Assembly: GCA_051382295.1 (NCBI GenBank)
Contig: JBBCAW010000107.1
Coordinates: 1 to 13,021 of the forward strand
DNA: 13,021 nucleotides
DNA from: Bdellovibrionota bacterium FG-1
Lineage (GTDB): Bacteria > Bdellovibrionota > UBA1018
Direction: 5' to 3'
The translations under genes were made by a program, and so were the position numbers. The first letter of the stretch is position 1. Every line of letters begins with the position of its first letter. The notes under the pieces were generated by a model, which was not told the origin of the DNA, searched no databases, and was given only the letters and a program-made list of their open reading frames with translations. Positions 1-12,769 of the stretch are shown in pieces.

Positions 1-704
1 GGGGCGGGGGCGCCCCTTTTGCGAGGGGTCGGGCGAATACGCGGAGGACGGTAGGTCGCCGTAAATTGCTGAGTGGCGGGAGCCTCTTGAATTTCAAGCG
101 TCGTGCGACCGGCTAACGAAGAACCATTCTGGGCCTCGTGCTGAATTTTTTGAAGTTGGTCCGCAAATTCGAGGTTCGTCTTGGCGAAGTGAGTGGTAAA
201 ACGAACGTGTTTGAAGGGGTGGCCTTCGCAACGGGACTGGGCTTGCTCTTCGTTGGTCATGTCATAACCGAGCAGATCCACTTCAATCGAATCCGTGAGG
301 GATTCGTCGAGTTTTTCGAGGGCTTTGCAGGGGTCATCGCCGCAGGTATCCTGTCCGTCCGTGATGATCAAGGTTCGCGCGATTTTCTGTGTCGCGGTTT
401 TTTGGGCCAACATCCGAATCGAGGCTCCGAGCGGAGTCATGGCAAATTTTCCCGGCCTTTGGTGGGTCGCCCAGTTATCCAGTTCTTCGGCGCGTTTCAG
501 CGCGACCTCCATGCCGTCACAGCCTGCGGATTTCCCCGAGCCAAACGAGATCACCAAAATCGGATCTTGCGCGCGATAGGACGAAGACAACGCCCCCATG
601 TTTTCGACCAAAATATCCCGTTTGCTCTTGTCCTCGAGTTTTTGATCCATGGAGCCGCTAAAGTCCAGAATCAACGCTAAGGCGATCAAGGCATCAGTCG
701 ACAT
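1..704 (-). CDS. von Willebrand factor A (VWA) domain protein with MIDAS motif, 3'-truncated by the window edge
   Basis: Not in the ORF track because it has no stop in the window. Manual translation from ATG 704, with a GGAG SD just upstream, is open to base 3: MSTDALIALALILDFSGSMDQKLEDKSKRDILVENMGAL...ILVISFGSGKSAGC...AMTPLGASIRML...RTLIITDGQDTCGDDPCKAL...IEVDLLGYD... It has DxSxS, TPL and ITDG-x-x-TCGxDPC motifs typical of YwmD-like VWA domains, and overlaps the upstream ORF by 11 nt. Confidence 0.9.
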   Translation of the reverse strand, partial: MSTDALIALALILDFSGSMDQKLEDKSKRDILVENMGALSSSYRAQDPILVISFGSGKSAGCDGMEVALKRAEELDNWATHQRPGKFAMTPLGASIRMLAQKTATQKIARTLIITDGQDTCGDDPCKALEKLDESLTDSIEVDLLGYDMTNEEQAQSRCEGHPFKHVRFTTHFAKTNLEFADQLQKIQHEAQNGSSLAGRTTLEIQEAPATQQFTATYRPPRIRPTPRKRGAPA

Positions 705-1977
705 CCGAGAGTTCTCCGCTATGATTCAAATTGAGGGCGAAGCTCAGCGTGAGTCCGCCCGCCCAGTTGAGGTAGCGATACTCTGGATTGGCCGTCAGCA
801 CTTTCGAAATGCGCGGGCCGCTCCCAGTCTGCCAGACTATGTCCATGCCGCCAAAAGCGCCCAGGCCAAATTCCAGGGCGGAAGAAAACTTTCGTTGGAA
901 AAGCGTTCTTCTTAAATCGATGGAGAACCAGCTGGCAGTGACCGCCGTTCCCCGATAGTTGGCCGAATCCTGAGTCGTGCCTACCACGCTTTTTAAAATT
1001 TCCAAGGTCAGCCAGGGGCTTTTGATGCGCGTGCCGAAATAAACAGATTGGCTCAAGGTCGAAAATGCGACGGGGGCTTCCGGCTCAATGGTCAGTCGTT
1101 CTTGGCGAAAGCCGCCCAGCAAGCCAAAGAGCCAACGGGCCTCATCAGGTTTCCAGGCAACGAGTAAATGTCCGTCCCAGCCATCCGTGTGACCGGTTCG
1201 TTCTTCCGTCCCGGCGGCCGACGTGGTCACGGTCTCTAATGAGCCAGCCATGGAACGTTCAAATGCGCCCTGCAGATGAAAAATCATCGTCCCATGATCA
1301 AAGTCGGGATTCCAGGGGGTCGTCCAGCCGAGGCCAATCGTGTTATTGGCGTTCAAATGGTTCGCCGACTCGGTCTGGGTATTGGCCGTGGTCGAGAGAG
1401 CGCGTTTTTCCAGCGCCGATTGCAGGGCGAGCGAGAACTTTCCGAGGCTAAGGGATCTTTCGTCTTTTTCAAAAGTCGGAATCGCCAAGACGGTGGTATT
1501 TTTTGCCAGCACCGGCGCCGGTCGTGGCAATTCGGGCGGGCGGGGCGTCGCCATTTTGGCAAAGGCCAGTTGATCGACCGTTAAAAAATGCAGCGAACCT
1601 CTCGGCAGACGGCCCTCAGCCTCCACACGTAAGCCATCTTGAAACTTGCTGGCCTCATCCGAGGAGAGCGCGGCGACCCGTCTACAAAAGGGATCACACA
1701 AATAAATTTCCGAAAGAATAGAATCTTTGGGACGCCCCAGGGCCAGTCGCTTCATGCGAGTGGCAACGTCCTCATTCAGGTGATGTGCCGTGGGCCGCGC
1801 GGGACGGGGAGGTCGGGGCGGACGCGGGGGCCGCGCCGGGCGAGGTGTGCGCGCAGCGCGCGCCATCCGAGGAGCGTGAAACACGCGCGGAACGGCATCT
1901 TCGGTCGCCGAGGCCAACAAAAGAAAAGGCTGAGAAAAAACGAGCAAAATCAAGGCCGTAGGGCATCCGTGCCACAC
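694..1977 (-). CDS. Secreted protein with Pro/Arg-rich N-terminal linker and predicted C-terminal outer-membrane beta-barrel
   Basis: 427-aa ORF with GTG start and a hydrophobic signal ending in ASA. The C-terminal ~215 aa contain about 10 alternating amphipathic segments (TIGLGWT, IFHLQGAFER, GHLLVAWK, WLFGLLGGFRQ, SVYFGTRIK, WFSIDLRR, LEFGLGAFGG, WAGGLTLSFAL). It is coupled by overlap to the VWA gene. Confidence 0.65.
   Translation of the reverse strand: MWHGCPTALILLVFSQPFLLLASATEDAVPRVFHAPRMARAARTPRPARPPRPPRPPRPARPTAHHLNEDVATRMKRLALGRPKDSILSEIYLCDPFCRRVAALSSDEASKFQDGLRVEAEGRLPRGSLHFLTVDQLAFAKMATPRPPELPRPAPVLAKNTTVLAIPTFEKDERSLSLGKFSLALQSALEKRALSTTANTQTESANHLNANNTIGLGWTTPWNPDFDHGTMIFHLQGAFERSMAGSLETVTTSAAGTEERTGHTDGWDGHLLVAWKPDEARWLFGLLGGFRQERLTIEPEAPVAFSTLSQSVYFGTRIKSPWLTLEILKSVVGTTQDSANYRGTAVTASWFSIDLRRTLFQRKFSSALEFGLGAFGGMDIVWQTGSGPRISKVLTANPEYRYLNWAGGLTLSFALNLNHSGELSDVD
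1792..1872 (-). repeat. Coding tripeptide repeat (xxR)9: PRMARAARTPRPARPPRPPRPPRPARP
   Basis: Arg occurs at residues 37, 40, 43, 46, 49, 52, 55, 58 and 61 (exact period 3), with mixed codon usage. Confidence 0.85.
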
Positions 1978-2003
1978 TCAAATCATTGTAATCCAAAAGC
2001 TTC

Positions 2004-2024
2004 ATGATATCATTAAATAATGAT
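2004..2024. promoter_or_regulatory. Overlapping palindromes in the short AT-rich divergent intergenic region (possible operator)
   Basis: ATGATATCAT (2004-2013) is a perfect palindrome and ATCATTA-AA-TAATGAT (2009-2024) is a 7-2-7 inverted repeat. They sit in the 42-bp gap between divergent starts at 1977 and 2020. Confidence 0.3.
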
Positions 2025-4953
2025 CGGTGCATGCCGACCTACGGTCATTGCCTTGCTTTTGTGGGCCCTCGGGGGAGGGCTTGCGGGCTGTTCTTTGGCC
2101 AAAAATTCGGTCCCATTATCTAGCCTCGCCGATTATCGAAATTTGCCCGTCGACGCCGAATTGAGTCTGTTTGCTGTCAATTCAGGCCTTTCTGAAAGCG
2201 CTTATGTCGGCACCCTGCAAAGGACGACGACGGGGATTGAGTTGCCTGCGGCCGCGCTTTCCGACATTCAAGCTCGAAGTGCGGCGCAACCCGTGGCTTT
2301 TGTGATCAAATCATTTTCGGTCGCGGCGGCCACGGGGAGTGATTATTTTTTAGAAACCCCGATTTTGAGTTCTTCCCTCGAATTCAGCGGCGCGACCACG
2401 GCGCTTTGGTTGGCCGTTAAACTGAGTGTCAAAAATGCGGCAAAAGTGTTGAAAATCGATCGCGCGACTTGGGATGATCTCTTATTTGTACTGGAAAATT
2501 CCTGCAAAAATTGCAAAACGATGAGTACTTCCGAGGTCTGGGCGGTGTTGCGAAGTAATGCTGAACTTCAGACCTCCCTCAATTTATCGCTGAGTCAACT
2601 GAATCCACCCGTACAGCTTCTTCAAACTGTTTTGGATTCACCTCCGATCCAGATTGCCAAGAGCGTGCCGGTGAGCGTGAATGGTATCGCAGTAACGCAA
2701 GCCATTGTGGAGGGAAGCACGCTCTCTTTTGAAGCGGAGTTCTATGCACCGGATCAGGCGAGTGAGCGGATCGCGCCGACTTCGTGGAGCAGCTCCGCCT
2801 CCGGCAACACGGTCTTTGCAACCAACGCGGCGACGGCCAGCAAATATTTCGATTTCTTCACCGCGGGCACGGACACCATTACGGCTGGCACGAATTTGAC
2901 GGACGGACGCAGTGCTTCGGTCGTATTTAATCAGAGTGTCGCTAACGTCAATCAACCCCCGACGTGGGCGAGTATTCCCACCCCAAGTTTTATCGCAAAT
3001 CATCGCAATACTCTGGATCTTTCGCTTTATGGTCAGGACATCGATGGCGATCCAATGACCTTCAGCTTGGTTTCTGGACCAGCGGGGCTGACCCTGAATG
3101 CTTCGACGATCGAGTGGAATCCCACGCAGGCTCCTAACCCGGATCAGCTGGGCACTTTCGAGGTCATCGCGAAAGTGCGATCCACGGTTTTTGATGCGTC
3201 CGTGACCTTTCATGTCGCGGTGACGCAGGATCATTTGCCGTCTTTTGCCCTGGGAATCCCGAGTTCCTGGAACCTCAGCGAAGGCACGCTCGGCGTTTTC
3301 AGTTTTGCCACACAGGATACGGAGTCTGATCCGCTGGCTTTGAGTTGTGTCAGTGGTTGCGCTGCGATTGTGTCAGGGAGTCCTGCCGATGCCGGTTGGC
3401 CCTCCAGTTATAGCTATGGCGGTGTGCCGGGAGCTCAGACGATTTCGATTTCCTACAAACCGAGTTACCTTGAAACGATTGGGGGCGATGCTGCGCGGGC
3501 GATTGTGCTTGGACTTTCTTATGATCAAATCGCTGACCCAAATTTACGACAAATCACGCCCGTGGAGTTTCCGCTCACTTTGAATATCACCAATACGGAT
3601 GATCCGCCTTCTTGGATCGCGGGCGGCGCGATTCTGACCGAGGATCACACGGGTGGGGCGGCGTTAACCGAAAATGTGGCCTTCACTTCGACAACCGCCT
3701 TCCTCGCCATCGATCCCGCGCCCGGCGCGACGGCCCTCACTTACAGCGTGCCTGCGCTCCCGACTTATTGTCCTTGGCTTACGCTCAACGGCAGCCGCAA
3801 GGTGACGGGCACGCCCGGCTATGCCTCGCCGGCAACGTGCGTGTTTCAGATTCGTGCGACGGACACGCATGGACTCTTTAGTGATTCGCCGAACATCACC
3901 TATGCCATCACAGATGTAAACCGCCCTCCCGTGACTGCAATCGCCTTACCCGACCAAACCATCGCCGAAGGGCAAACGCTGACGTTGGCGTTGGCCACGT
4001 ACTTTAGTGACCCGGACGTGACGGTCGGTGACCCGCGCGAAACTCTCGTTTATAGCTGCACGAACTGTCCCGCAGGAGCGACGATCAGTGGCTCGACCTT
4101 GACTTACATTCCCGCTTATAGCATATCGACCGGCGCGCCTGTTGCTTTCAATGGTGTTCAAATCACCGTGACGGACAAGGGGGGCGCGACCGCCAGTCAG
4201 ACCTTCAAGATTACCGTGACCAACGCCCTGGGACCTCCTGTTATTGCCTTCAGTTCGGGTACCCTCACGCTTGCGGCAAACCAGGTTACGCAAACCGAGA
4301 CGGATGCCGCCGGTACGATCATCGTCGGGGTGAGCTTCTATGCTGGCGATGCGCCTTACGCCTATGATCTGAGTGTTTCCTGTTCACCTAGTTGCAGTGG
4401 CAGTTTGGTGAGTTTGCCGGTGACTTCCGGCAGCACCGCCGCTAATTATAACCTGAACATCACCCCGTCTTATACGGATGGCGATGGCGGAACGAACGCG
4501 AGTCAGAAAAACTACACGGTGACGATCTCTGGGGCCCAGAACGCCGGTATTCTGACCGGCTCGAGTTCGTTCGTTTTAAATATTGAGAATGTCAATCGCC
4601 TGCCAACGGCTCTCGTGATCGCCGGTGATAACGGGGTTGGAACTTATGCCTTTACGATCGATGGTTCAACTTGGAACAGTCATACCACCGCGCTGAGCAC
4701 TGCCGATCCCGATGGCACTAATGACGCCTATACTTATAGTTTTGTCACCACCACCTATGCGGCCGTGGGGAGCCTCTCTGGCTCAAATTGGAGCTTTAAT
4801 CCGATTCAAGCCGGCTGCGCCAGTGGGAGTGAAACCGTGGTTAAAACTTTTGATCTTAAAACCTCAGACAACCGAGGGGGGACCGTCACGCGCCGGCTGC
4901 AAATGACCGTGCTGAACGCTCAGACCGGGGGGGGCGGGTCGTGTCCGTACTAA
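2020..4953 (+). CDS. Large surface lipoprotein with tandem cadherin-like/putative-Ig (He_PIG-like) repeats; probable adhesin
   Basis: Lipobox LAG-C24. Repeated cadherin-type linker and Ca-binding motifs: NVNQPP, DIDGDPMTFSLVSGPAGLTL, DTESDPL, NTDDPP, DVNRPP, DPDVTVGDP, TDKGGATASQTFKITV, NVNRLP, DPDGTND, SDNRGG. The sequence is Thr/Ser/Gly-rich and beta-type. Confidence 0.85.
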   Translation: MIGACRPTVIALLLWALGGGLAGCSLAKNSVPLSSLADYRNLPVDAELSLFAVNSGLSESAYVGTLQRTTTGIELPAAALSDIQARSAAQPVAFVIKSFSVAAATGSDYFLETPILSSSLEFSGATTALWLAVKLSVKNAAKVLKIDRATWDDLLFVLENSCKNCKTMSTSEVWAVLRSNAELQTSLNLSLSQLNPPVQLLQTVLDSPPIQIAKSVPVSVNGIAVTQAIVEGSTLSFEAEFYAPDQASERIAPTSWSSSASGNTVFATNAATASKYFDFFTAGTDTITAGTNLTDGRSASVVFNQSVANVNQPPTWASIPTPSFIANHRNTLDLSLYGQDIDGDPMTFSLVSGPAGLTLNASTIEWNPTQAPNPDQLGTFEVIAKVRSTVFDASVTFHVAVTQDHLPSFALGIPSSWNLSEGTLGVFSFATQDTESDPLALSCVSGCAAIVSGSPADAGWPSSYSYGGVPGAQTISISYKPSYLETIGGDAARAIVLGLSYDQIADPNLRQITPVEFPLTLNITNTDDPPSWIAGGAILTEDHTGGAALTENVAFTSTTAFLAIDPAPGATALTYSVPALPTYCPWLTLNGSRKVTGTPGYASPATCVFQIRATDTHGLFSDSPNITYAITDVNRPPVTAIALPDQTIAEGQTLTLALATYFSDPDVTVGDPRETLVYSCTNCPAGATISGSTLTYIPAYSISTGAPVAFNGVQITVTDKGGATASQTFKITVTNALGPPVIAFSSGTLTLAANQVTQTETDAAGTIIVGVSFYAGDAPYAYDLSVSCSPSCSGSLVSLPVTSGSTAANYNLNITPSYTDGDGGTNASQKNYTVTISGAQNAGILTGSSSFVLNIENVNRLPTALVIAGDNGVGTYAFTIDGSTWNSHTTALSTADPDGTNDAYTYSFVTTTYAAVGSLSGSNWSFNPIQAGCASGSETVVKTFDLKTSDNRGGTVTRRLQMTVLNAQTGGGGSCPY

Positions 4954-4972
4954 GCGGTCAGGGAAAAAGAAG

Positions 4973-5620
4973 TCAGGGCAAAAACCAATAAAACCCAAGG
5001 GAAGCGTGAAAAAACGTTACCTCACGATTCAACGTCGTCCCTAGCCCCGTTTCCATTCGCATTCCGAAACGGCGGAGAATGGTATAATCGAGTCCCAGTT
5101 TGCCAAGAATCCCCACGCCGCTGCTATTCAAACGGGTCGTCGTAGTCGTGCTGCCTACGGTGGTTGCGCGTGAAAGCGTCCCTTGGCTAAAATCCACGCC
5201 TAACCCTAAATAGGGGCTCCACGCCTGGCGGTACCATGCCGTCCGAAAAATTTCCTCGCCTCCTGGAAGTACGCCCGGAGTGCCATTCCAAAAGTACCAG
5301 CGCCCGATCAGGCTCGTGACGCCCACGCCGCTAATAATCGGCGAGAGGCTTGCGGTTCGGAGATGCTCGAGGGCTAGGGTTTTTGTAGTATCCGCGGACC
5401 ACTCGAGGGAAGCTGCCAGCAACAGCGGACCTTCATTGAGTACTTTTGGGCTGATGCTTACGGCTGAAACGCCATACCCCATGAGCACGCCCAGGCGAAA
5501 GCTGGACAGGCCGCCGCTCTCCTCGGCGCTGGCCAAGCTCCCGCACAAAAGCCCATTACAAAATCCGCCCCACAATCCAAAAAAAAGGAAGCTACGCGGC
5601 CATCGGTCTGACATTTTCAC
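4973..5620 (-). CDS. Small outer-membrane beta-barrel protein (OmpA-TM/OmpW-like size)
   Basis: Signal peptide ending ASA, about 8 amphipathic strands (FRLGVLMGYG, LAASLEWS, LIGRWYF, SPYLGLGVDF, GILGKLGLDY, FGMRMETG) and an aromatic C-terminus ASLGFYWFLP. The start is GTG 5620 or ATG 5614, overlapping the stop of the 610-aa gene. Confidence 0.75.
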   Translation of the reverse strand: MKMSDRWPRSFLFFGLWGGFCNGLLCGSLASAEESGGLSSFRLGVLMGYGVSAVSISPKVLNEGPLLLAASLEWSADTTKTLALEHLRTASLSPIISGVGVTSLIGRWYFWNGTPGVLPGGEEIFRTAWYRQAWSPYLGLGVDFSQGTLSRATTVGSTTTTTRLNSSGVGILGKLGLDYTILRRFGMRMETGLGTTLNREVTFFHASLGFYWFLP

Positions 5621-7424
5621 GTGTTTTCTCGTTGGCGGTTTCTAGGTGAAGATCGATCTGCCCATTCGCAAGCAATTCATTGAGCCGGCCCTTCAGGGAC
5701 AAGAGATGATTCTCCCGTTCGTCGGCCGTGGTGCGGTCCTCGCGTTTGAGTCCATCCTCCACGATTTGCCGGGTCATGGGGGGGCAGACCGCGAGCACTC
5801 TTCCTTTAACTTCCGGAATCAGACGCAAAAACGAGGCAATTTCACCCTGCGGGGCCGTGGCAAAGAGGCTGGTCAGCGCAGCGTCCGACCACCAACCGAC
5901 AAAAGCCAGGGAAGGGTAGTTTTCCTTGAAAGAAGTCATCGCGGAGCCCAGTCGTTCCTCGAGTTTTCGCAGAATGGCGATTTCGGCGGTTGGCTTGAGC
6001 GATTCAAGCAGTCGCGCCAGCATAGGTTGAACCTGGATTTCGGCTTCGGCAGCCGTGCCATTGAATTTGGACTTGAGCGAGTTGTTGAGTGCTTGCACGT
6101 CGGTCTTGGAAACCTTGTCGAGTTTGAACGCTTCTTCAATGAGTTCCTCCAACGAATCCGGAGACAAGGTTCCAAAGTATTGGGTCCGAGTTTGTTCGGG
6201 CATGTGGAGTGCGACCAGGGTGCGCATCCGCGAATTCTCATTGATCAGCATTTCATTCAACAGGCCTCCATTACTTCGACCCAGATATTCGAAGGGTTTC
6301 TCCATACCCTCGGCGCCAAGGGTTTTAAAGGCCACGACATCCCAGTACACTTTTTCAACCGTTTGGAGGCGATCGAGTAAAGGAAATTCGGACATCCGTT
6401 TAAAGACATCAATCATGCCATTGCGTGCCTCGGCCGGCACATTAAAATGCTCCTGCATCTCGGTGACCGCGTCGATGAAGCAGGCCATTTTGAAGGTGCC
6501 CTCTTCTCCGGCCTGCGTCCACGTGGCCATGATAGGTTCAAGCCTGGGTCCTAATTGGGTGACCAGGGTCCTAATTTTGTCCAAAAACCCATTAATTTCG
6601 GCCTGAATTTGCCGCGGCGAACGCGTGTGATGAATGGGCTCGGGCGTTTTTTCTTCTTCTATTTTTTTAGGGGGAGGCGGGGCCTCGGCTGTAAGCGCCG
6701 GGCTTTGCAGTTTATGTAATTCTACCGTCGTCTTCCGTTCTTCAAGCGCATCCTTGGAGACCATATTTTTCCAACCCAACAAGGCCAGTAAAATAGCCAA
6801 ACTAAAAACTGTCAGCCCCAGCAGCGTTTGCATCTCCGCGACCCGATCCAAAGGGGTCTTTTCGCGCGGGGGCAGCGGCTTCTCCGGAGGGGGCGTGGGA
6901 TCCACGGGTTTTTTCTTAATAAAAGTAACGGAGCTTTTCCCGGTCTCCTGAAACTCATTTTTTACCCGTTGTTTGAGCCAGGTTCCGACTTGTTCTTCAG
7001 TGGCTTTGTCCAGCGTATCGATCAAGCCGACCGATAAAACAGCCGAAACAATCTCGTATTTGTTGAGCAACCCTTCGGGGGGCTTGAATTCCAGGCGATC
7101 CAGTTCAAAAGTGCCCAGCATGATATCCGGGGGCGGGGCTTTATCTTCGGTCGGTTGGGGTTGCCGGATTGGCTCGATTTCAACTTGCGCGCTCACGGTA
7201 AAACTCTCGCGATCCAAAAGCGTGGCCAAGCCGGTCCGATATCGCTTGGCGAGCATGTCCTCGAGCAAGGCTTTGGCCCCGATCATCTCGGAAGTGTAAG
7301 GGGCTTCGACCGGCGCGGGGGTGTCGGGTCCCGCAGCGAGGACGGTTTGAAAACTGAGGGCCAGCAGCAAAAAGCCAAGTACGCATCTATTCAATCTGTT
7401 AGTCCATCTCGTGGTCCATCTCAT
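5592..7424 (-). CDS. FliF-FliG-like fusion protein (signal peptide, FliF RBM3-like domain, TM helix, FliF C-terminal helix, FliG N/M/C domains)
   Basis: Manual alignment to remembered consensus. aa54-84 and 124-170 resemble the two halves of FliF RBM3. TM at aa200-218. aa280-303 (FLDKIRTLVTQLGPRLEPIMATWT) resembles the FliF C-terminal helix, and aa307-365 (EEGTFKMACFI...) resembles FliG_N. aa377-453 (PFEYL...LINENSRMRTLVALHMP) resembles FliG_M, with EHPQ replaced by ENSR. aa466-592 resembles FliG_C, ending LNELLANGQI. Confidence 0.8.
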   Translation of the reverse strand: MRWTTRWTNRLNRCVLGFLLLALSFQTVLAAGPDTPAPVEAPYTSEMIGAKALLEDMLAKRYRTGLATLLDRESFTVSAQVEIEPIRQPQPTEDKAPPPDIMLGTFELDRLEFKPPEGLLNKYEIVSAVLSVGLIDTLDKATEEQVGTWLKQRVKNEFQETGKSSVTFIKKKPVDPTPPPEKPLPPREKTPLDRVAEMQTLLGLTVFSLAILLALLGWKNMVSKDALEERKTTVELHKLQSPALTAEAPPPPKKIEEEKTPEPIHHTRSPRQIQAEINGFLDKIRTLVTQLGPRLEPIMATWTQAGEEGTFKMACFIDAVTEMQEHFNVPAEARNGMIDVFKRMSEFPLLDRLQTVEKVYWDVVAFKTLGAEGMEKPFEYLGRSNGGLLNEMLINENSRMRTLVALHMPEQTRTQYFGTLSPDSLEELIEEAFKLDKVSKTDVQALNNSLKSKFNGTAAEAEIQVQPMLARLLESLKPTAEIAILRKLEERLGSAMTSFKENYPSLAFVGWWSDAALTSLFATAPQGEIASFLRLIPEVKGRVLAVCPPMTRQIVEDGLKREDRTTADERENHLLSLKGRLNELLANGQIDLHLETANEKTRENVRPMAA

Positions 7425-8098
7425 GATCGCGCCCCCCCCGTACCGGTGGCGGGCCTGTTTAAGAGTTTGCGGAGTTTGGAAATCATTTTTACCGCGTCGT
7501 CCATCTGCGCATCCAAAGTCAGGGCTTCCTCGAAGGATTTTAGGCTTTCCTCATATTTGTGCTGAAGGTAGTAGACCGAACCCCGCATCGAAATCGCGCG
7601 CGGAAAACGGGGGGAGATCTGCAGGGCCTTATCTATCTCAATTTGCGCGCGCTCGTAGTCACCTTGAACGGCAAATTTTTGCGCCATAAAAAGAATGCGC
7701 AAAAGCTCGCTCGCGATGTGGTCCTCTTTGGCTCCTGCGGTAAGTTTAACGTTGAGGCCATTCGTGAGGGTTCCAAGACGACCCGTTGGGAGCACGTAGT
7801 GTTCGGTTTGAAAACCTGATTTTTCGAGGATCAGCTCGACAAAGTCATTGGAGGGAAACGGCTCACCCGTTCGCTTTGCGAATTCCGCGCGCGAAAAATC
7901 CACCGGCGTCGTGCCGAGTGAGATCCGTTCGCCCGTCGTCGGCTTGAGCGCATAGACCGTGGCTTCTGCAGGATCACTCTTAATGACCAGGTGTGAGGCA
8001 CAGCCCCCCAACGTCACGACGATGGCGATGACCAGCCCGACCCGCTGCAAGGCAGTGCGCAAAACATGAAAAAATAAAAAGGGTGAAAAATTGCCCAT
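7421..8098 (-). CDS. PEGA-domain plus TPR lipoprotein
   Basis: Lipobox LGG-C33. PEGA-like segment LVIKSDPAEATVY...LGTTPV...LILEKSGFQ...LNVKL. TPRs AQKFAVQGDYERAQIEIDKALQISP and AISMRGSVYYLQHKYEESLKSFEEALTLDA. It has an ATGA overlap (7421-7424) with the fusion gene. The true start could be TTG 8062. Confidence 0.85.
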   Translation of the reverse strand: MGNFSPFLFFHVLRTALQRVGLVIAIVVTLGGCASHLVIKSDPAEATVYALKPTTGERISLGTTPVDFSRAEFAKRTGEPFPSNDFVELILEKSGFQTEHYVLPTGRLGTLTNGLNVKLTAGAKEDHIASELLRILFMAQKFAVQGDYERAQIEIDKALQISPRFPRAISMRGSVYYLQHKYEESLKSFEEALTLDAQMDDAVKMISKLRKLLNRPATGTGGARS

Positions 8099-8107
8099 CC
8101 TTTTACC

Positions 8108-8134
8108 GTTTCGTCTGATTTCAGGATGAACTTA
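8108..8134 (-). promoter_or_regulatory. sigma28 (FliA)-like promoter for the PEGA-TPR / FliF-FliG / beta-barrel operon
   Basis: Minus strand TAAG-N15-GACGAAAC versus consensus TAAA-N15-GCCGATAA (3/4 and 5/8 matches, exact spacing). Confidence 0.35.
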
Positions 8135-8159
8135 ACCTTTTTCCACAATCTGACGATCA
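8133..8159 (+). promoter_or_regulatory. sigma28 (FliA)-like promoter for the coiled-coil gene
   Basis: Plus strand TAAC-N15-GACGATCA versus TAAA-N15-GCCGATAA (3/4 and 6/8 matches, exact spacing). Confidence 0.4.
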
Positions 8160-8198
8160 GTGCTTGTGGCAAAAGTCCGCGTTGAACATTCCATACCC

Positions 8199-9443
8199 AT
8201 GCCTGAAAGCGAAACCGCCCCTGAGCGGCGTTTTTCAGAACGGCGGATCGGTGACGAGTTGCGCTCCGCAATTGAGGGCTTTGAGCAAGAAATTACCCAA
8301 ACTCATGAGGGAAAACGGTTACTCGAACAGGAAAATCACCGCCTTCGGGGCGCCGGTTTAGCGCTCCAAGAAGAACTCGCGGCAAAAGAGCAGGAGCTCG
8401 AACTCATCCGCGCGACCTTGGCCCAGGCGCAGGAAGAAGCCCGAACACAAGAGCGGGCCTTCAATACGCAGCTGCACGCGACTACTTTGATCCACCAAGA
8501 AAAAATCGAGATGATTCAACAGGCGGCGGTGAGACAAGTTGCGCAAGCCGAAGAAAAAATCGTCGCCTTGCACCGCGTTTTTGAGGCCAAGATCCGGATA
8601 GAGCACGAAGAGCAAGCGAAAACACGTGAAAAAATGGGGTTATTGGAAACGCAGCTTTGTGAGGCTCGGCAACAGGTACTGGATCGCGAATCCCAGGTTT
8701 CGCGCCTGAAAAAGGAAAATCATCAGCATCACGTCGAACTTGTTCAGGGTGCGAGGGAGTCTTCTCGCTTGGTGGCCGAACGGAAAGCAGCCCAGCAAGC
8801 CTCACAGATCGAGGGTCAGAGAAGGTTTCAGACCGAACAAGCGGCTCTTGCGAAACTGGAAACCGCGATGGCGCAAATCGAGTTTTACAAGGACGAGTTG
8901 ACTCATTTTAGAAATCATTTGGAATCAGTGAAACCAACGATTGAAGCGCAGGCTCGTCAAATTCGTAAGGAGGCCGAGGAGTATTGGCGCGCCCGCCTCG
9001 CCGAGAAGGAGCGTGAATGGCTCGACAAAATTTTGGCGGCTCAAGGAGAGTGTGCGCGACTGAAGGCCGAACGGGACTCGACCCAAGCGACGCACCAGTC
9101 GGCGATTGTGAACGCCCAGGTGCGTTTGGACAGTTCTTTGGCGGCACTGGCCGCTGAAAAGCGAAAATTTGCGCAAGATCTCGAAAAACTTGCGGTCGAA
9201 GTCGAACAAATGAAGTGTTTGCACCCGCTGCGGGATTGTCTGCGGTTGACCGAACGCGAGCTTCACCGAACCGAGGGTGAACTCAAGGGTCTGCACCCCC
9301 TGCGTCCGGAGCGGCAGTCTTTGGAAGGGACCTTGGCTCAGCTTGAGGAGCAAAAGAAATTTCTGGAGCAAGTGATTGGCAAAGCGTCCTCGGATTTTGA
9401 CGAGCAGGCGAGAAAAATTCGGAATAAAACGCTAGTTAATTAG
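8199..9443 (+). CDS. Long cytoplasmic coiled-coil protein
   Basis: E/Q/A/L/R/K-rich heptad pattern over about 390 aa, with no signal peptide or TM. The ORF track starts at GTG 8160; the in-frame ATG 8199 (MPESETAPERR) is preferred here. Confidence 0.8.
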   Translation: MPESETAPERRFSERRIGDELRSAIEGFEQEITQTHEGKRLLEQENHRLRGAGLALQEELAAKEQELELIRATLAQAQEEARTQERAFNTQLHATTLIHQEKIEMIQQAAVRQVAQAEEKIVALHRVFEAKIRIEHEEQAKTREKMGLLETQLCEARQQVLDRESQVSRLKKENHQHHVELVQGARESSRLVAERKAAQQASQIEGQRRFQTEQAALAKLETAMAQIEFYKDELTHFRNHLESVKPTIEAQARQIRKEAEEYWRARLAEKEREWLDKILAAQGECARLKAERDSTQATHQSAIVNAQVRLDSSLAALAAEKRKFAQDLEKLAVEVEQMKCLHPLRDCLRLTERELHRTEGELKGLHPLRPERQSLEGTLAQLEEQKKFLEQVIGKASSDFDEQARKIRNKTLVN

Positions 9444-9549: not shown

Positions 9550-10194
9550 TCACTCCGTCATGGTTCGTTTCTGAAAATACTGCCGAAGCCTCGCCAAAGC
9601 ATCTTGGTTAATAGTCCTACCAGCATGATCTAGCTGCCACAGCGCCACGTCTGGGAAGCGAAGAAAAATCTGTATGAGTCGGGCAGGTGCAGAATCAATC
9701 GATTTATTCTGTTCGACTCTGTTCACGGTAATAACGCTCAAGCCGAACGCACGAGCAAGCTCATACCGAGATAGGCCCAACTCTTTTTTGATTCTAATGA
9801 GCTGACTCGAATCAAAACGCTCTAAAGGCACTGGCTCGAAAACGAAAGTAGAGGGCCCTTTTCGTCCTATCGTAGTAAGGAGGACAATTGGATTTTTTTC
9901 GTTGAGTGAAATACCAACGGAACGACAGTATTCCTCGAATGCTGGGTTCGCGCGCGAAGGGATGCGATCAGAAAGCGAGGCAAACAGTTTTTTTCCTTTC
10001 GACCAGTGCACCTTTTTGAATAAGTCTAGATCCGGACCGACTGGAATAGCGTTTTTTGATAAAGCATATTTCTGGTCATATTCAAATTTGTACAGCTCGC
10101 GGTCCGGCTCATAGGATAGTACCCCAACGTAGATTCTACGCGTTCGGTTTTCAGTAAATACTTCAAGTCGGTTAGAATCCATTTCTAGTTGCAT
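9550..10194 (-). CDS. HipA N-terminal (HipS/Couple_hipA-like) domain fused to XRE-type HTH; probable antitoxin and autorepressor
   Basis: aa9-121: VGVLSY...YKFEYD...AIPVGPDL...LFASLSDRIP...IVLLTTIG...FVFEP. aa130-178: LIRIKKELGLSRYELARAFGLSVITVNRVEQNK. GGAG SD lies 7 nt before ATG 10194, and the gene overlaps the kinase by 23 nt. Confidence 0.85.
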   Translation of the reverse strand: MQLEMDSNRLEVFTENRTRRIYVGVLSYEPDRELYKFEYDQKYALSKNAIPVGPDLDLFKKVHWSKGKKLFASLSDRIPSRANPAFEEYCRSVGISLNEKNPIVLLTTIGRKGPSTFVFEPVPLERFDSSQLIRIKKELGLSRYELARAFGLSVITVNRVEQNKSIDSAPARLIQIFLRFPDVALWQLDHAGRTINQDALARLRQYFQKRTMTE

Positions 10195-11113
10195 CTTTCA
10201 ACTCCTGAATCCGCTTCGCGATTAACTTCGAAATAGCCCCCTTCATTAGGTTAGAACAAAAGCTTTCTGAAATTACCGCTTGGATTTTTTCCTCATTAAT
10301 ACGTCCTGTGAACGTTTTGACGTGATCCGCGAATCCACACGAACTGAATTCGACGACATAATCGTACATCGTTGGTTCCCGCGAGCGCTCCGTAAATATC
10401 TTCCCGCGAGGATCAAAGTCAGCCCTTAAAAATTCCCCCGACTCCAAGCCAAGATAGGACGTATTATCGTAGACGGGAGAAAGTGACACACGCTGCGGGG
10501 TTATCACAAAAGCCAAGTTACGTCCGTGCCTGTCATGGTTGCCAATCAGCGCATCGAAGAGGCACGTATGAATAAATACCTCCAAATCATAGGGTCGTTT
10601 CGTTTCTTGCTGAATGATCTGAAGAAGTGAAGCGCAAGAGTACGCTTGGTCCGCTTGGAAATAGTGATAGATATGCGTAAGATTGGAGGATCCGCCGCCG
10701 CGCCTGATGAAGTTTTTGGTTACAAATGTACGATCACCAAAAAGTTCAATCAAATAGTGATCCGCGATAGGCAAACCCAAGGCTTGGCCTATCTGATTGC
10801 AGAGATATTCTACTTCCGGAAGTTCAGGAGCCTTTTTTTCGTGGACCTTCAAAATGTAGCTATCGCCCGCTAAATCGGCAGAATATTTTCTGAATTTTCC
10901 ATGGAAGAAGCTTGAGATAAACCCCTTGGCTGGGTCTATCGCCGGTGACGGTAGGGTCGGCTCGCGGCTTTCAGTTGACTGCCTCACTAAACTGACAAAT
11001 TCGGCGGGCTGCTTCAGCTTAAACCAAGTCAGGAAACAAGCTTCATGCAAGCCGTAGCGAGACTGTGCACCAGCAATCGGCTGCAAGCATTTGAAGCACC
11101 TTTTATTGTTCAT
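10172..11113 (-). CDS. HipA-family Ser/Thr kinase lacking the N-subdomain (HipT-like toxin)
   Basis: Motifs YILK, LPEVEYLCNQIG, FVTKNF, FDALIGNHDRHGRNLAF (catalytic) and LSPVYD (Mg-binding). N-terminal C6xxC9...H23xxC26. 313 aa. Confidence 0.92.
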   Translation of the reverse strand: MNNKRCFKCLQPIAGAQSRYGLHEACFLTWFKLKQPAEFVSLVRQSTESREPTLPSPAIDPAKGFISSFFHGKFRKYSADLAGDSYILKVHEKKAPELPEVEYLCNQIGQALGLPIADHYLIELFGDRTFVTKNFIRRGGGSSNLTHIYHYFQADQAYSCASLLQIIQQETKRPYDLEVFIHTCLFDALIGNHDRHGRNLAFVITPQRVSLSPVYDNTSYLGLESGEFLRADFDPRGKIFTERSREPTMYDYVVEFSSCGFADHVKTFTGRINEEKIQAVISESFCSNLMKGAISKLIAKRIQELKDATRNGF

Positions 11114-11293: not shown

Positions 11294-12048
11294 ATGCGGC
11301 GGAATCTTGAAAAAATGGGAGATTCGGCCGAGTTTGTGCTGTCTTTGGCGCGACCTTATTAAAGATGCCCAGTCGCTTTCCCCTTGTGGCTTGCAAGAAC
11401 AATGAAAGTGACCATCCCCAAAAGAAAGGATTCGATTCTTATTGTATGCGGCTCCGTTGCCGCTTTCACAACCGGGTTACGAAATCTCCGATCTCAATGC
11501 GTCCTTTCACTGGTGAATCCGCAACCCAATTCATCAATAACAATTTCTTCGGAACCCGTGGTGAACTTCGAAAGGACTTTTCACGCCTTTTCAAATCTTT
11601 GTTTGATGAATACCGAAAGCATGTTGCCGTCATTCGGGCTTTGGCCGCTCATCCATCGGGATACACCCATCAAGAATTGCTGGGAGTTCTACAGCTTCCG
11701 GGCGGTGGGAGATTCTCAGAAGCGCTGGAAGAATTGGAGGAGTCACATTTTATTCAATTTACTCCGAAGCTCGGGAACAAGAAGAAAGAAGGAGTGTATA
11801 GACTCATTGATCGCAAAGACGACACGATCAATCTCTGCGAGATGAAGTATACAGGCTCCGTTTTCAAGCTTACTGCAACGGAAGCTAAAAAAATTCGGGA
11901 TAGAAAAGATGAACTCCTGAGTATCGTGAAAAAAGGAACTTCAGTCATCGTAATACTGGTCACGCCGCTGCCAGTGAGCAAGACCATGGCCCACTATACG
12001 GGGCTTATCGATGACCAGGTAAATCTAGACGCCTTCTTCAAAAACTGA
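11294..12048 (+). pseudogene. Degraded AAA+ ATPase (archaeal-type ATPase with winged helix and C-terminal DUF234/PD-(D/E)xK-like domain)
   Basis: Fragments lie in different frames: SAEFV then AVFG (11324-11349, lead-in to a missing GRRRVGKT Walker A), FPLWLA, RKDSILIVCGSVAA, then FHNRVT...PFT, FSRLFKSLF, LEELEESHFI, YRLID and IDRKDDTINLCEMKYT. There is no intact Walker A or B, and several internal segments are absent. Confidence 0.8.
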
Positions 12049-12093: not shown

Positions 12094-12471
12094 TCAAGGC
12101 TCGAAACACTCATTGGAAGACAGGATCTTTTTCAAATTTTTATCCAATGTCCAAACCTTGAGTTTGTTTTTTCTCGCGGCCGAAAGGATCGCCAAGTCGA
12201 TCAGCCCGACGCCTTTTGAATGAAGTCTGCCCTCGGAAGAGAGTTTGCCTGCCGAAAGCCAGATTCCTTCCTCTTGGACCTTCGGAAGGTTTTTCCAATA
12301 CTCCAGGACGATATCAGCCTCTTTGTTGGATCGCACCCCCTGCAAGAGCTCTCCAAAAACGCATTCCACCGTGAAAACCCTGTGTTCTTCAATCATCGGC
12401 CCTAAAATAGACGGGTAATCCCCGACGCCCTTGAGAAATTCGATCCATATCGAGGTGTCGGCGATCATCAT
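12094..12471 (-). CDS. vapC: PIN-domain ribonuclease toxin (VapC family)
   Basis: IADTSIWIEFL, GELLQG, LIDLAILSAA and WTLDKNL provide the PIN acidic residues. 125 aa, with an ATGA overlap with the upstream antitoxin. Confidence 0.93.
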   Translation of the reverse strand: MMIADTSIWIEFLKGVGDYPSILGPMIEEHRVFTVECVFGELLQGVRSNKEADIVLEYWKNLPKVQEEGIWLSAGKLSSEGRLHSKGVGLIDLAILSAARKNKLKVWTLDKNLKKILSSNECFEP

Positions 12472-12689
12472 TTCTGTCTTCTTCGGTTGAGTCGCCTAAT
12501 CTTAGCCGCGCCGACGCCTTCTTTAAAGCGAAGAGGAGCGCGCTGGACCTCCTGATTCAGGGCTTGGAGCGTTTTTGTCGAGGTCCATTCGCTCAAAGCA
12601 ATGATCAATGCCTCAGTGATGGTCTTGCCGTGCGAAAGGACCTTCACTTCATTAATAAGCTCGTCAGGTAAGAGAGCGGTTACTTTCAT
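12468..12689 (-). CDS. vapB: VapB-like antitoxin (RHH-type, DUF2191-like), 73 aa
   Basis: MKVTALLPDELINEVKVLSHGKTITEALIIALSEW has a ribbon-helix-helix pattern. The start was reassigned from TTG 12767 to ATG 12689 because the promoter and operator lie between them. Confidence 0.85.
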   Translation of the reverse strand: MKVTALLPDELINEVKVLSHGKTITEALIIALSEWTSTKTLQALNQEVQRAPLRFKEGVGAAKIRRLNRRRQK

Positions 12690-12695
12690 TCCCCC

Positions 12696-12723
12696 ATTAT
12701 ACGATACGTCATCGTATTTTGAA
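12696..12723 (-). promoter_or_regulatory. vapBC promoter and operator
   Basis: Perfect TATAAT (12701-12696) lies 6 nt before ATG 12689, with a weak -35 TTCAAA (12723-12718). The inverted repeat ATACGAT-N5-ATCGTAT (12699-12717) overlaps the -10 and spacer. Confidence 0.75.
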
Positions 12724-12742
12724 ACCCCCTTTTCCGCATACG

Positions 12743-12769
12743 GATTGTCTACACGGTGCGTAGACAATC
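12743..12769. repeat. Perfect 10-7-10 inverted repeat
   Basis: GATTGTCTAC-acggtgc-GTAGACAATC. Confidence 0.85.

Follow-up and report, generated by a model that had tools for sequence, protein, structure and literature searches.

A FliF–FliG fusion of Bdellovibrionota belongs to a conserved, apparently undescribed gene module made of flagellar motor parts

FliG rings and MotA/PomA-type stators are treated as specific to the flagellum. Other ion-driven machines of the bacterial envelope are the Agl-Glt system of Myxococcus and the type IX secretion system (T9SS)/gliding machinery of Bacteroidota, in which GldLM drives the GldKN ring. A gene coding for parts of FliF and FliG in a single 610-amino-acid (aa) protein was found in the draft genome of Bdellovibrionota bacterium FG-1 (GenBank assembly GCA_051382295.1, 4.44 Mb), on contig JBBCAW010000107.1 (C107 below). 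The entire contig of 13,021 bases was analysed and is called the window. With its neighbours in related genomes the fusion gene forms a real, conserved system of flagellar motor parts, apparently undescribed. By the features tested it is not a flagellum, an Agl-Glt machine or a T9SS.

With the flagellar motor core this module shares the RBM3/S-ring fold, a membrane helix followed by the FliG N, M and C domains, and a torque helix that is acidic in most homologues; its stator, encoded next to the fusion in relatives, is likewise of the PomA/MotA type and has the plug, the OmpA domain and the ion-binding Asp. Unlike in the flagellum, the ring component is one polypeptide in which a signal peptide replaces the first transmembrane segment (TM1), RBM1 and RBM2 are missing and a short loop takes the place of the beta-collar. 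The module adds an outer-membrane barrel, a TPR lipoprotein and giant lipoproteins, and several paralogous modules occur per genome. No FliM/FliN, export gate, rod, hook or filament genes were found in the window or in the recurring neighbour families scanned. The likeness to the T9SS/gliding machinery is one of concept, in that an ion motor of 5:2 stoichiometry rotates a ring and surface adhesins are moved by it; the proteins are different, and the T9SS ring is an outer-membrane ring driven on the periplasmic side, whereas the ring proposed here would lie in the inner membrane and be driven from the cytoplasm. Agl-Glt, to whose Glt proteins sequence homology was assessed through Pfam and NCBIfam scans, is alike in combining an ion-driven motor with TPR proteins, outer-membrane barrels and a surface lipoprotein. 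Its motor (AglRQS) is of the TolQR type and has no FliG ring, whereas the stator of the module is flagellar-type, and its CglB is a lipoprotein VWA adhesin at the surface, in contrast to the VWA protein of the window, which has no signal peptide. In the Myxococcus machine the GYF domain of GltJ binds a proline-rich sequence of the coiled coil AglZ (PMC11135422; PMC11761067 on the machine), and genes for a GYF_2 membrane protein and for a coiled coil with a proline tail occur together in relatives of the locus.

The fusion starts with a signal peptide (residues ~1–30), followed by the RBM3/S-ring domain (43–171), a membrane helix (200–218), a helix resembling the FliF tail and the FliG N, M and C domains (307–590), and ends in Ala-Ala, encoded at window positions 5592–5600. 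As judged from sequence profiles and predicted folds, the protein is a true FliF/FliG chimera, in agreement with the original prediction made from this DNA. Pfam by itself gave a weak signal (FliG_M, E 4e-4). A profile of 122 full-length fusion sequences matched FliG M and C at E 9e-24 (1lkv) and FliF residues 448–559 weakly (E 0.0096). In the AlphaFold model the domain folds are reliable and their relative arrangement is not, because the mean predicted local distance difference test (pLDDT) was 74 and the predicted template modelling score 0.31. The best Foldseek matches of the model were FliG chains. In a wide structural search residues 43–171 matched the FliF S-ring (8z5v, Z 12.7, root-mean-square deviation 2.6, 96 aligned residues; 6scn, Z 12.2), with lower scores for other ring-building motifs (PrgK D2, Z 8.4; SpoIIIAF, 7.5), and the FliG part matched 4fq0 (Z 12.8) and 1qc7 (Z 10.9). 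An MgtE identity of the C-terminal part, raised by weak MgtE_N matches, was rejected, FliG chains being far better over M and C together.

From FliF the protein thus keeps the RBM3 fold, then the membrane helix and a helix like the FliG-binding tail, and from FliG the middle and C-terminal domains in their order. The 122 homologues have a median of only 30 residues (the signal peptide) and a maximum of 90 ahead of the RBM3 helix, so TM1, RBM1 and RBM2 are absent; the long beta-collar is also lacking, the insert at its place in the window's fusion being of low confidence and ~80 residues shorter than in FliF. In FliF, the export gate normally sits within RBM1/RBM2 and the collar, which also contact the rod. 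The EHPQ motif, by which FliG binds FliM, is not kept (ENSR in the window, mostly Q-N/D-x-K in the family). At the positions of the torque-helix charges R281, D288 and D289 (FliG numbering from PMC12505986) the window fusion has M550, D557 and G558. The two acidic positions are conserved in 109 and 111 of the 122 homologues. Ala-Ala ends 81 of the 122 homologues, as compared with 51 of 2892 long open reading frames (ORFs) of this genome, and many module MotAs as well. This ending resembles a ClpXP degradation tag and suggests regulated turnover.

Fused FliF and FliG as such have precedents. Salmonella mutants with fused FliF and FliG can reportedly form the ring, and a natural fusion presumably exists in Chlorobium tepidum, for which a literature search gave no paper. 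The title of PDB entry 8z4d describes ring formation by an engineered Vibrio FliF–FliG fusion. Unlike the protein studied here, the engineered fusions keep full-length FliF and serve the flagellum. A profile built from 21 homologues of the module fusion retrieved 219 proteins at E ≤1e-30 among 1.8 billion representatives. Named relatives came from Bdellovibrionota/Oligoflexia genomes. A protein 57% identical to the window's fusion (P0002) also exists. In the protein atlas, clusters that combine FliG_C with FliG_M are listed for Bdellovibrionota, Balneolota, Myxococcota and Elusimicrobiota, and in two of these clusters YscJ_FliF_C is present as well, in 15% and 55% of the members. A metagenome scan with a two-sequence alignment found no relative.

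The neighbourhood of the fusion was compared among relatives. A search of 300 other genomes of the phylum gave a fusion match in 61 and a strong full-length match in 17. The 28 loci counted comprised these 17 and 11 loci of further relatives, with six duplicates dropped; three loci of other subfamilies (L048–L050) were excluded. Neighbours were assigned by a six-frame scan with profiles built from the same 28 loci, and the giant fn3 family by BLAST cluster. The TPR lipoprotein and the small barrel were present in 26 loci each, and MotA and MotB in 18 each, rising to 12 of the 14 loci with at least 6 kb on both flanks. Given 3 to 7 motAB pairs per 4-Mb genome, such proximity would arise by chance in a few percent of cases (an arithmetic estimate). 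The core consists of five genes, for the TPR lipoprotein, the fusion, the small barrel, MotA and MotB, the last two lying outside the window. The commonest accessory neighbours were giant lipoproteins of 800–2400 aa (fn3 family, 21 of 28), followed by a GYF membrane protein (12), FG-GAP proteins (12), the coiled coil (9), a LysM lipoprotein (8), a second, larger barrel (c25 family, 5; F23 family, 3) and HAMP-SpoIIE genes (2). The check on fusion homologues that the original prediction had proposed thus revealed a conserved neighbourhood, with the stator missing from the window adjoining the fusion in relatives. Among the neighbours expected to recur, the TPR protein and small barrel did so and the coiled coil in part, whereas VWA and Ig lipoprotein genes were each present in three loci only and form, together with the large barrel, a minor cassette.

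The module-linked MotA was of the PomA/MotA type (E 6e-33), that is, flagellar and not ExbB/TolQ-like, with the expanded cytoplasmic interface, and the linked MotB had the plug, the OmpA domain and, in 17 of 17 cases, the ion-binding Asp. The basic interface residue of MotA was present in 18 of 18 clade members. In an unrooted tree from which two long rows had been dropped, one branch (93/75) separated the module MotAs from six free-standing ones. A correlation between fusion and MotA distances (rho 0.60) was set aside as support, being explained by shared ancestry.

The genome studied has seven motA/motB pairs. The original prediction had suggested looking for MotA/TolQ/ExbB-type genes to the left of the window, where contig C11 is the likely continuation: the N-terminal half of the VWA gene lies on C107 and the complementary C-terminal half at the start of C11. 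The join is inferred from these halves only, as no end overlap between the two contigs was seen in sequence comparison. No MotA-family match was found on C107 or C11. If the contigs do join, a 2067-aa lipoprotein with Laminin G and Ig domains (L068:1459-7662, on C11), observed just past the VWA half, would supply the usual giant lipoprotein. The fusion of the window is nested within stator-linked orthologues. None of the MotAs of this genome belongs to the 17-member core MotA clade. The stator would be supplied in trans, most likely by the motAB pair C55:5573-7203, the best candidate, which groups with the module clade and has HAMP-SpoIIE and FecR-like neighbours, as seen in two of the 28 loci. 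On contig C54 (L066:5142-10763) a motAB pair was observed that has an fn3 lipoprotein gene and a gene for a 455-aa barrel-like protein as neighbours but lies near no fusion gene; the basic interface residue is conserved in its MotA, a second candidate for the stator. A free-standing MotB on contig C33 (L124:5895-6614) has Gly at the expected position of the ion-binding Asp.

On contig C1 this genome has an ordinary flagellar gene cluster, in which fliF and fliG are canonical and separate. Two other draft genomes kept the fusion while having no match for flhA, flagellin or canonical FliG, namely G232 (97% complete) and G071 (91% complete). All their motB matches (two and one, respectively) sit in module-like loci. 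On one contig of G232 the genes for MotB, MotA, GYF protein, coiled coil, LysM protein, a c25-family gene, giant lipoproteins, TPR protein, fusion and barrel were located, the stator being 24 kb from the fusion within the same cluster; a second motAB pair stands between a TPR gene and a 554-aa gene unmatched by the fusion profile. The single motB match of G071 adjoins its fusion. Two closed genomes have three motB genes each, with one pair in a module-like locus and two free-standing.

Paralogous modules were also observed. A family of ~790-aa paralogues with a weaker profile match has its own operon, composed of a ~390-aa gene without Pfam match, a TPR lipoprotein, the fusion, MotA and MotB, and often also a cyclic nucleotide monophosphate (cNMP)-binding protein. 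In this genome two near-identical truncated copies of it lie at the ends of contigs C62 and C55 (L069:14285-16040, L070:12943-14716), which may reflect the 5% contamination, and a cNMP–MotA–MotB–zinc-ribbon continuation starts contig C123 (L067:215-2973). Two more modules on contigs C55 (L064:7175-11608) and C116 (L065:269-13878) contain TPR, MotA and MotB genes, a 544–557-aa protein of fusion-like layout and a 210–235-aa gene without Pfam match. The torque interface of MotA is shortened in both, and C116 adds two giant fn3 lipoproteins.

Because the fusion lies among surface-protein genes and, in relatives, beside motor genes of their own, the module is likely an undescribed second rotary machine. 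We infer the following way of working. The S-ring domain, joined by one membrane helix to FliG, would let the fusion assemble into an inner-membrane ring, which the dedicated MotA/MotB stator would turn with ion flux, MotA driving the FliG torque helix in a cogwheel fashion. The ring would turn in one fixed direction only, because FliM/FliN partners are missing and the EHPQ motif is not kept, and it would have no export gate or rod, because RBM1/2 and the collar are missing. Force would be passed by the TPR lipoprotein and the small barrel, the latter more likely a dock than a channel by its predicted fold, to large surface lipoprotein adhesins, and the most likely job would be to move or tension these adhesins for surface or prey attachment. 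By analogy with GltJ and AglZ of Myxococcus, the GYF membrane protein and the proline-tailed coiled coil might determine where in the cell the machine sits.

This reading, in which a stator turns an inner-membrane ring one way only and the lipoprotein and barrel link the ring to surface adhesins, is given an even chance of being right. The conserved neighbourhood and the stator genes beside the fusion in relatives support the originally proposed trans-envelope machine derived from a flagellar rotor, whereas its gene membership had to be revised to the five-gene core. The wider proposal, a second ion-driven rotary machine of Bdellovibrionota and several other phyla, in which a one-protein ring drives giant adhesins via barrel and lipoprotein on a GltJ/AglZ-like platform, is tentative and should be taken as somewhat doubtful. 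Several observations weigh against the ring-and-adhesin reading. At the R281 position a basic residue (R or K) was found in 56 of the 122 fusion homologues, and G558, as in the window fusion, was seen in 2 of the 122. The acidic E98 position of MotA is acidic in 0 of 18 members (5 of 17 in an ungapped register by eye), so that the FliG R281/MotA E98 charge pair is poorly kept, and the MotAs of the ~790-aa paralogue family lack the basic interface residue in 8 of 8 cases. The grouping of the candidate stator C55:5573-7203 with the module clade had a support of 87/90, which falls short of the threshold, and this stator has Asn at the basic interface position. No obvious shaft across the cell wall is seen, RBM3 being short and the TPR protein ~190 aa long. 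The adhesin role rests on domain types. The neighbour counts given above are family assignments and not independent trials, because the loci are related and the profiles came from them. Finally, 33 of the 35 module genomes have flhA and flagellin, so the flagellum-free comparison depends on two draft genomes.

That last count would suit an accessory role in the ordinary flagellum, be it as an assembly factor or as an alternative set of rotor and stator, in line with the published view that the three motAB pairs of B. bacteriovorus power one flagellum, a view retained in a 2026 review (PMC13689555). Such a role is nevertheless very unlikely, as the module is kept in the two genomes without flagellar genes, canonical fliF and fliG exist separately on contig C1, the fusion has no gate- and rod-binding parts, and module stators group apart from the free-standing ones. 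Alternatively, ring and stator could act like those of the T9SS and power the export of the giant lipoproteins or their display at the surface, instead of moving adhesins that have already reached it. Giant lipoproteins need a route to the surface and are the prevailing accessory neighbours, often with a larger barrel gene near, yet the conserved barrel, being 8-stranded, leaves too little room for proteins to pass, the neighbourhood families scanned contained no recognisable T9SS or secretin gene, and the RBM1/2 domains that house the type III export gate are missing from the fusion; export is regarded as unlikely.

A surface-contact sensor, in which adhesin load would engage stators at the ring and the output would be a signal with little or no net rotation, seems distinctly improbable. 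It would account for the degeneracy of one torque charge pair, for the HAMP-SpoIIE genes in two loci and beside the C55 stator and for the cNMP-binding protein of the ~790-aa family, and stator mutations are reported to alter cyclic di-GMP and lifestyle in B. bacteriovorus, though for motA3 (PMC11323537). However, conservation in the clade is strong both for the acidic pair of the torque helix and for the basic residue of MotA, and the signalling genes lie outside the core. For the genome studied there is also a small chance that its copy is decaying or re-purposed after parting from its stator, the machine being real in relatives. The locus is without motAB, and the GYF and LysM orthologues are on contigs C4 and C83, a scattering by which partial decay is possible; M550 and G558 in the torque helix, a coiled coil without proline tail and the lack of an own MotA in the core clade point the same way. 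Against decay, none of the complete ORFs is disrupted or shortened, a 57%-identical relative exists, the G232 stator is distant yet within the cluster, and 4 of 10 coiled coils have no tail.

A slim lead concerns the rose-like complex seen by cryo-ET at the invasive pole of B. bacteriovorus, which the module might form; its ring of ~17 nm is much narrower than flagellar FliG rings. According to a preprint, the complex spans the periplasm, has this ring on the cytoplasmic side and large extracellular densities, and occurs in 2–3 copies per invasive pole; its genes are unknown and the authors propose a type I secretion system (bioRxiv 10.1101/2022.06.13.496000).

No published account of the module was found in the literature searches, whose scope left out subscription papers and supplements (e.g., PMC11323537 Tables S4/S5) that could mention it. 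The whole stator clade is called 'flagellar ion transporters' (PMC12505986), and, in the passages covered, two papers on Bdellovibrio stators treat three motAB pairs as flagellar with FliG unmentioned (PMC13689555, PMC11323537). Both biofilm-forming B. bacteriovorus mutants listed in Table 1 of PMC11323537 carry a change in bd0149, an uncharacterised gene whose locus number is close to those of motAB1 (Bd0144/0145). The motAB1 pair is described as missing from epibiotic predators (PMC11870529). If the proposed machine exists, some stator pairs counted as flagellar in predatory bacteria would belong to it, and a conserved module with rotor and stator but no gate, rod or switch would put the motor to a new use. 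Such a module would be a natural minimal rotor and would bear on the evolutionary assembly of the flagellum. It makes testable why predatory bacteria have several motAB pairs and which genes build unidentified polar complexes. What the locus adds is the occurrence of several paralogous modules per genome, the GYF/coiled-coil platform and a fusion copy apart from its stator.

The features of the window are listed in Table 1. All seven ORFs of the original prediction are present, with overlaps of 11, 29 and 4 nt and gaps of 42, 19 and 61 nt (100 nt to the first ATG of the coiled coil). They do not form a single operon, being distributed over both strands in four transcription units (VWA and large barrel; Ig lipoprotein; TPR, fusion and small barrel; coiled coil), with the genes for TPR lipoprotein, fusion and small barrel as the only overlapping run. 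A scan of the window confirmed that it is free of FlhA/B, FliPQR, FliM/N, rod and stator genes.

Table 1. Features of the 13,021-base window
Feature	Position	Strand	Remarks
VWA protein, N-terminal half	3–704	-	ORF cut by contig end (feature listed 1..704)
Large barrel candidate, 427 aa, exported	694–1977	-	protein atlas 0.92, shared motif
Divergent intergenic region, 42 nt	1978–2019		sigma-70-like matches on both strands; consensus match only
Ig/cadherin-like lipoprotein, 977 aa	2020–4953	+	He_PIG, Big_9 domains; accessory; candidate surface adhesin
Small 8-stranded outer-membrane barrel, 215 aa	4973–5620	-	core partner; predicted fold
FliF–FliG fusion, 610 aa	5592–7424	-	sequence profile and predicted structure
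FliG middle and C-terminal domains including torque helix	5655–6311	-	1lkv, 4fq0, 1qc7 matches
FliF RBM3 (S-ring) fold	6912–7298	-	low-confidence short loop at beta-collar position, no RBM1/RBM2 ahead
TPR lipoprotein	7421–8098	-	lipobox Cys33, TPR; core partner
Cytoplasmic coiled-coil protein	8160–9443	+	conserved 70-aa C-terminal domain

Of the domain assignments made earlier, TPR held in the putative PEGA-TPR protein and PEGA was weak (4 of 22 homologues, best E 0.006); the protein has an invariant lipobox Cys33 and a weakly PEGA-like N-terminal domain. The cadherin-like repeats were recovered as He_PIG/Big_9, and from these domain types the lipoprotein is a candidate surface adhesin. Among the two outer-membrane barrels claimed, the small one has a predicted fold of the OmpA/OprF/NspA type (pLDDT 82; E 4e-8), whereas the large one is a lead. 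Its protein atlas score of 0.92 was accompanied by a recognition value of 1996, under the 2300 mark; a word search gave no homologue, and comparison with the F23 family by hhalign was not significant by score (E 0.0034, probability 9.5%; z 1.0–1.6). Judged by position it is probably orthologous to the gene found upstream of VWA in three loci, with which it has a C-x-P-x-C motif in common, although pairwise scores were not significant. The VWA domain gave a weak match in the window (E 0.002) and a clearer one in the homologues. The protein starts at the strand of the metal ion-dependent adhesion site (MIDAS), with no signal peptide or lipobox in the window copy or in 3 of 3 close homologues, and the supposed CglB-like surface adhesin is therefore not established. 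The coiled-coil protein has its C-terminal domain in common with nine relatives. A proline-rich tail, missing from the window copy, ends 6 of the 10 aligned family members, and all six lie near a GYF_2 membrane protein gene.

Rightward of the module the GC content falls and unrelated toxin–antitoxin genes start. A gene with HipA N-terminal/HTH domains and a HipA_C kinase gene (9550–11113, minus strand) form a HipBA-like pair in this lower-GC stretch, and a PIN/VapC gene with a small upstream partner is located at 12094–12767 (minus strand). The ORF between them (11365–12048, plus strand; 227 aa) has no Pfam or NCBIfam match and may be a fragment. A plasmid search with the window gave no match, and a look-up of sequencing runs for it returned none. 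A 135-nt piece near the end of contig C107 is 99% identical to contig C78, which holds a similar small gene. The same contig C78 carries, at 56351–70885, four related 820–870-aa fn3-family lipoproteins amid short unrelated genes.

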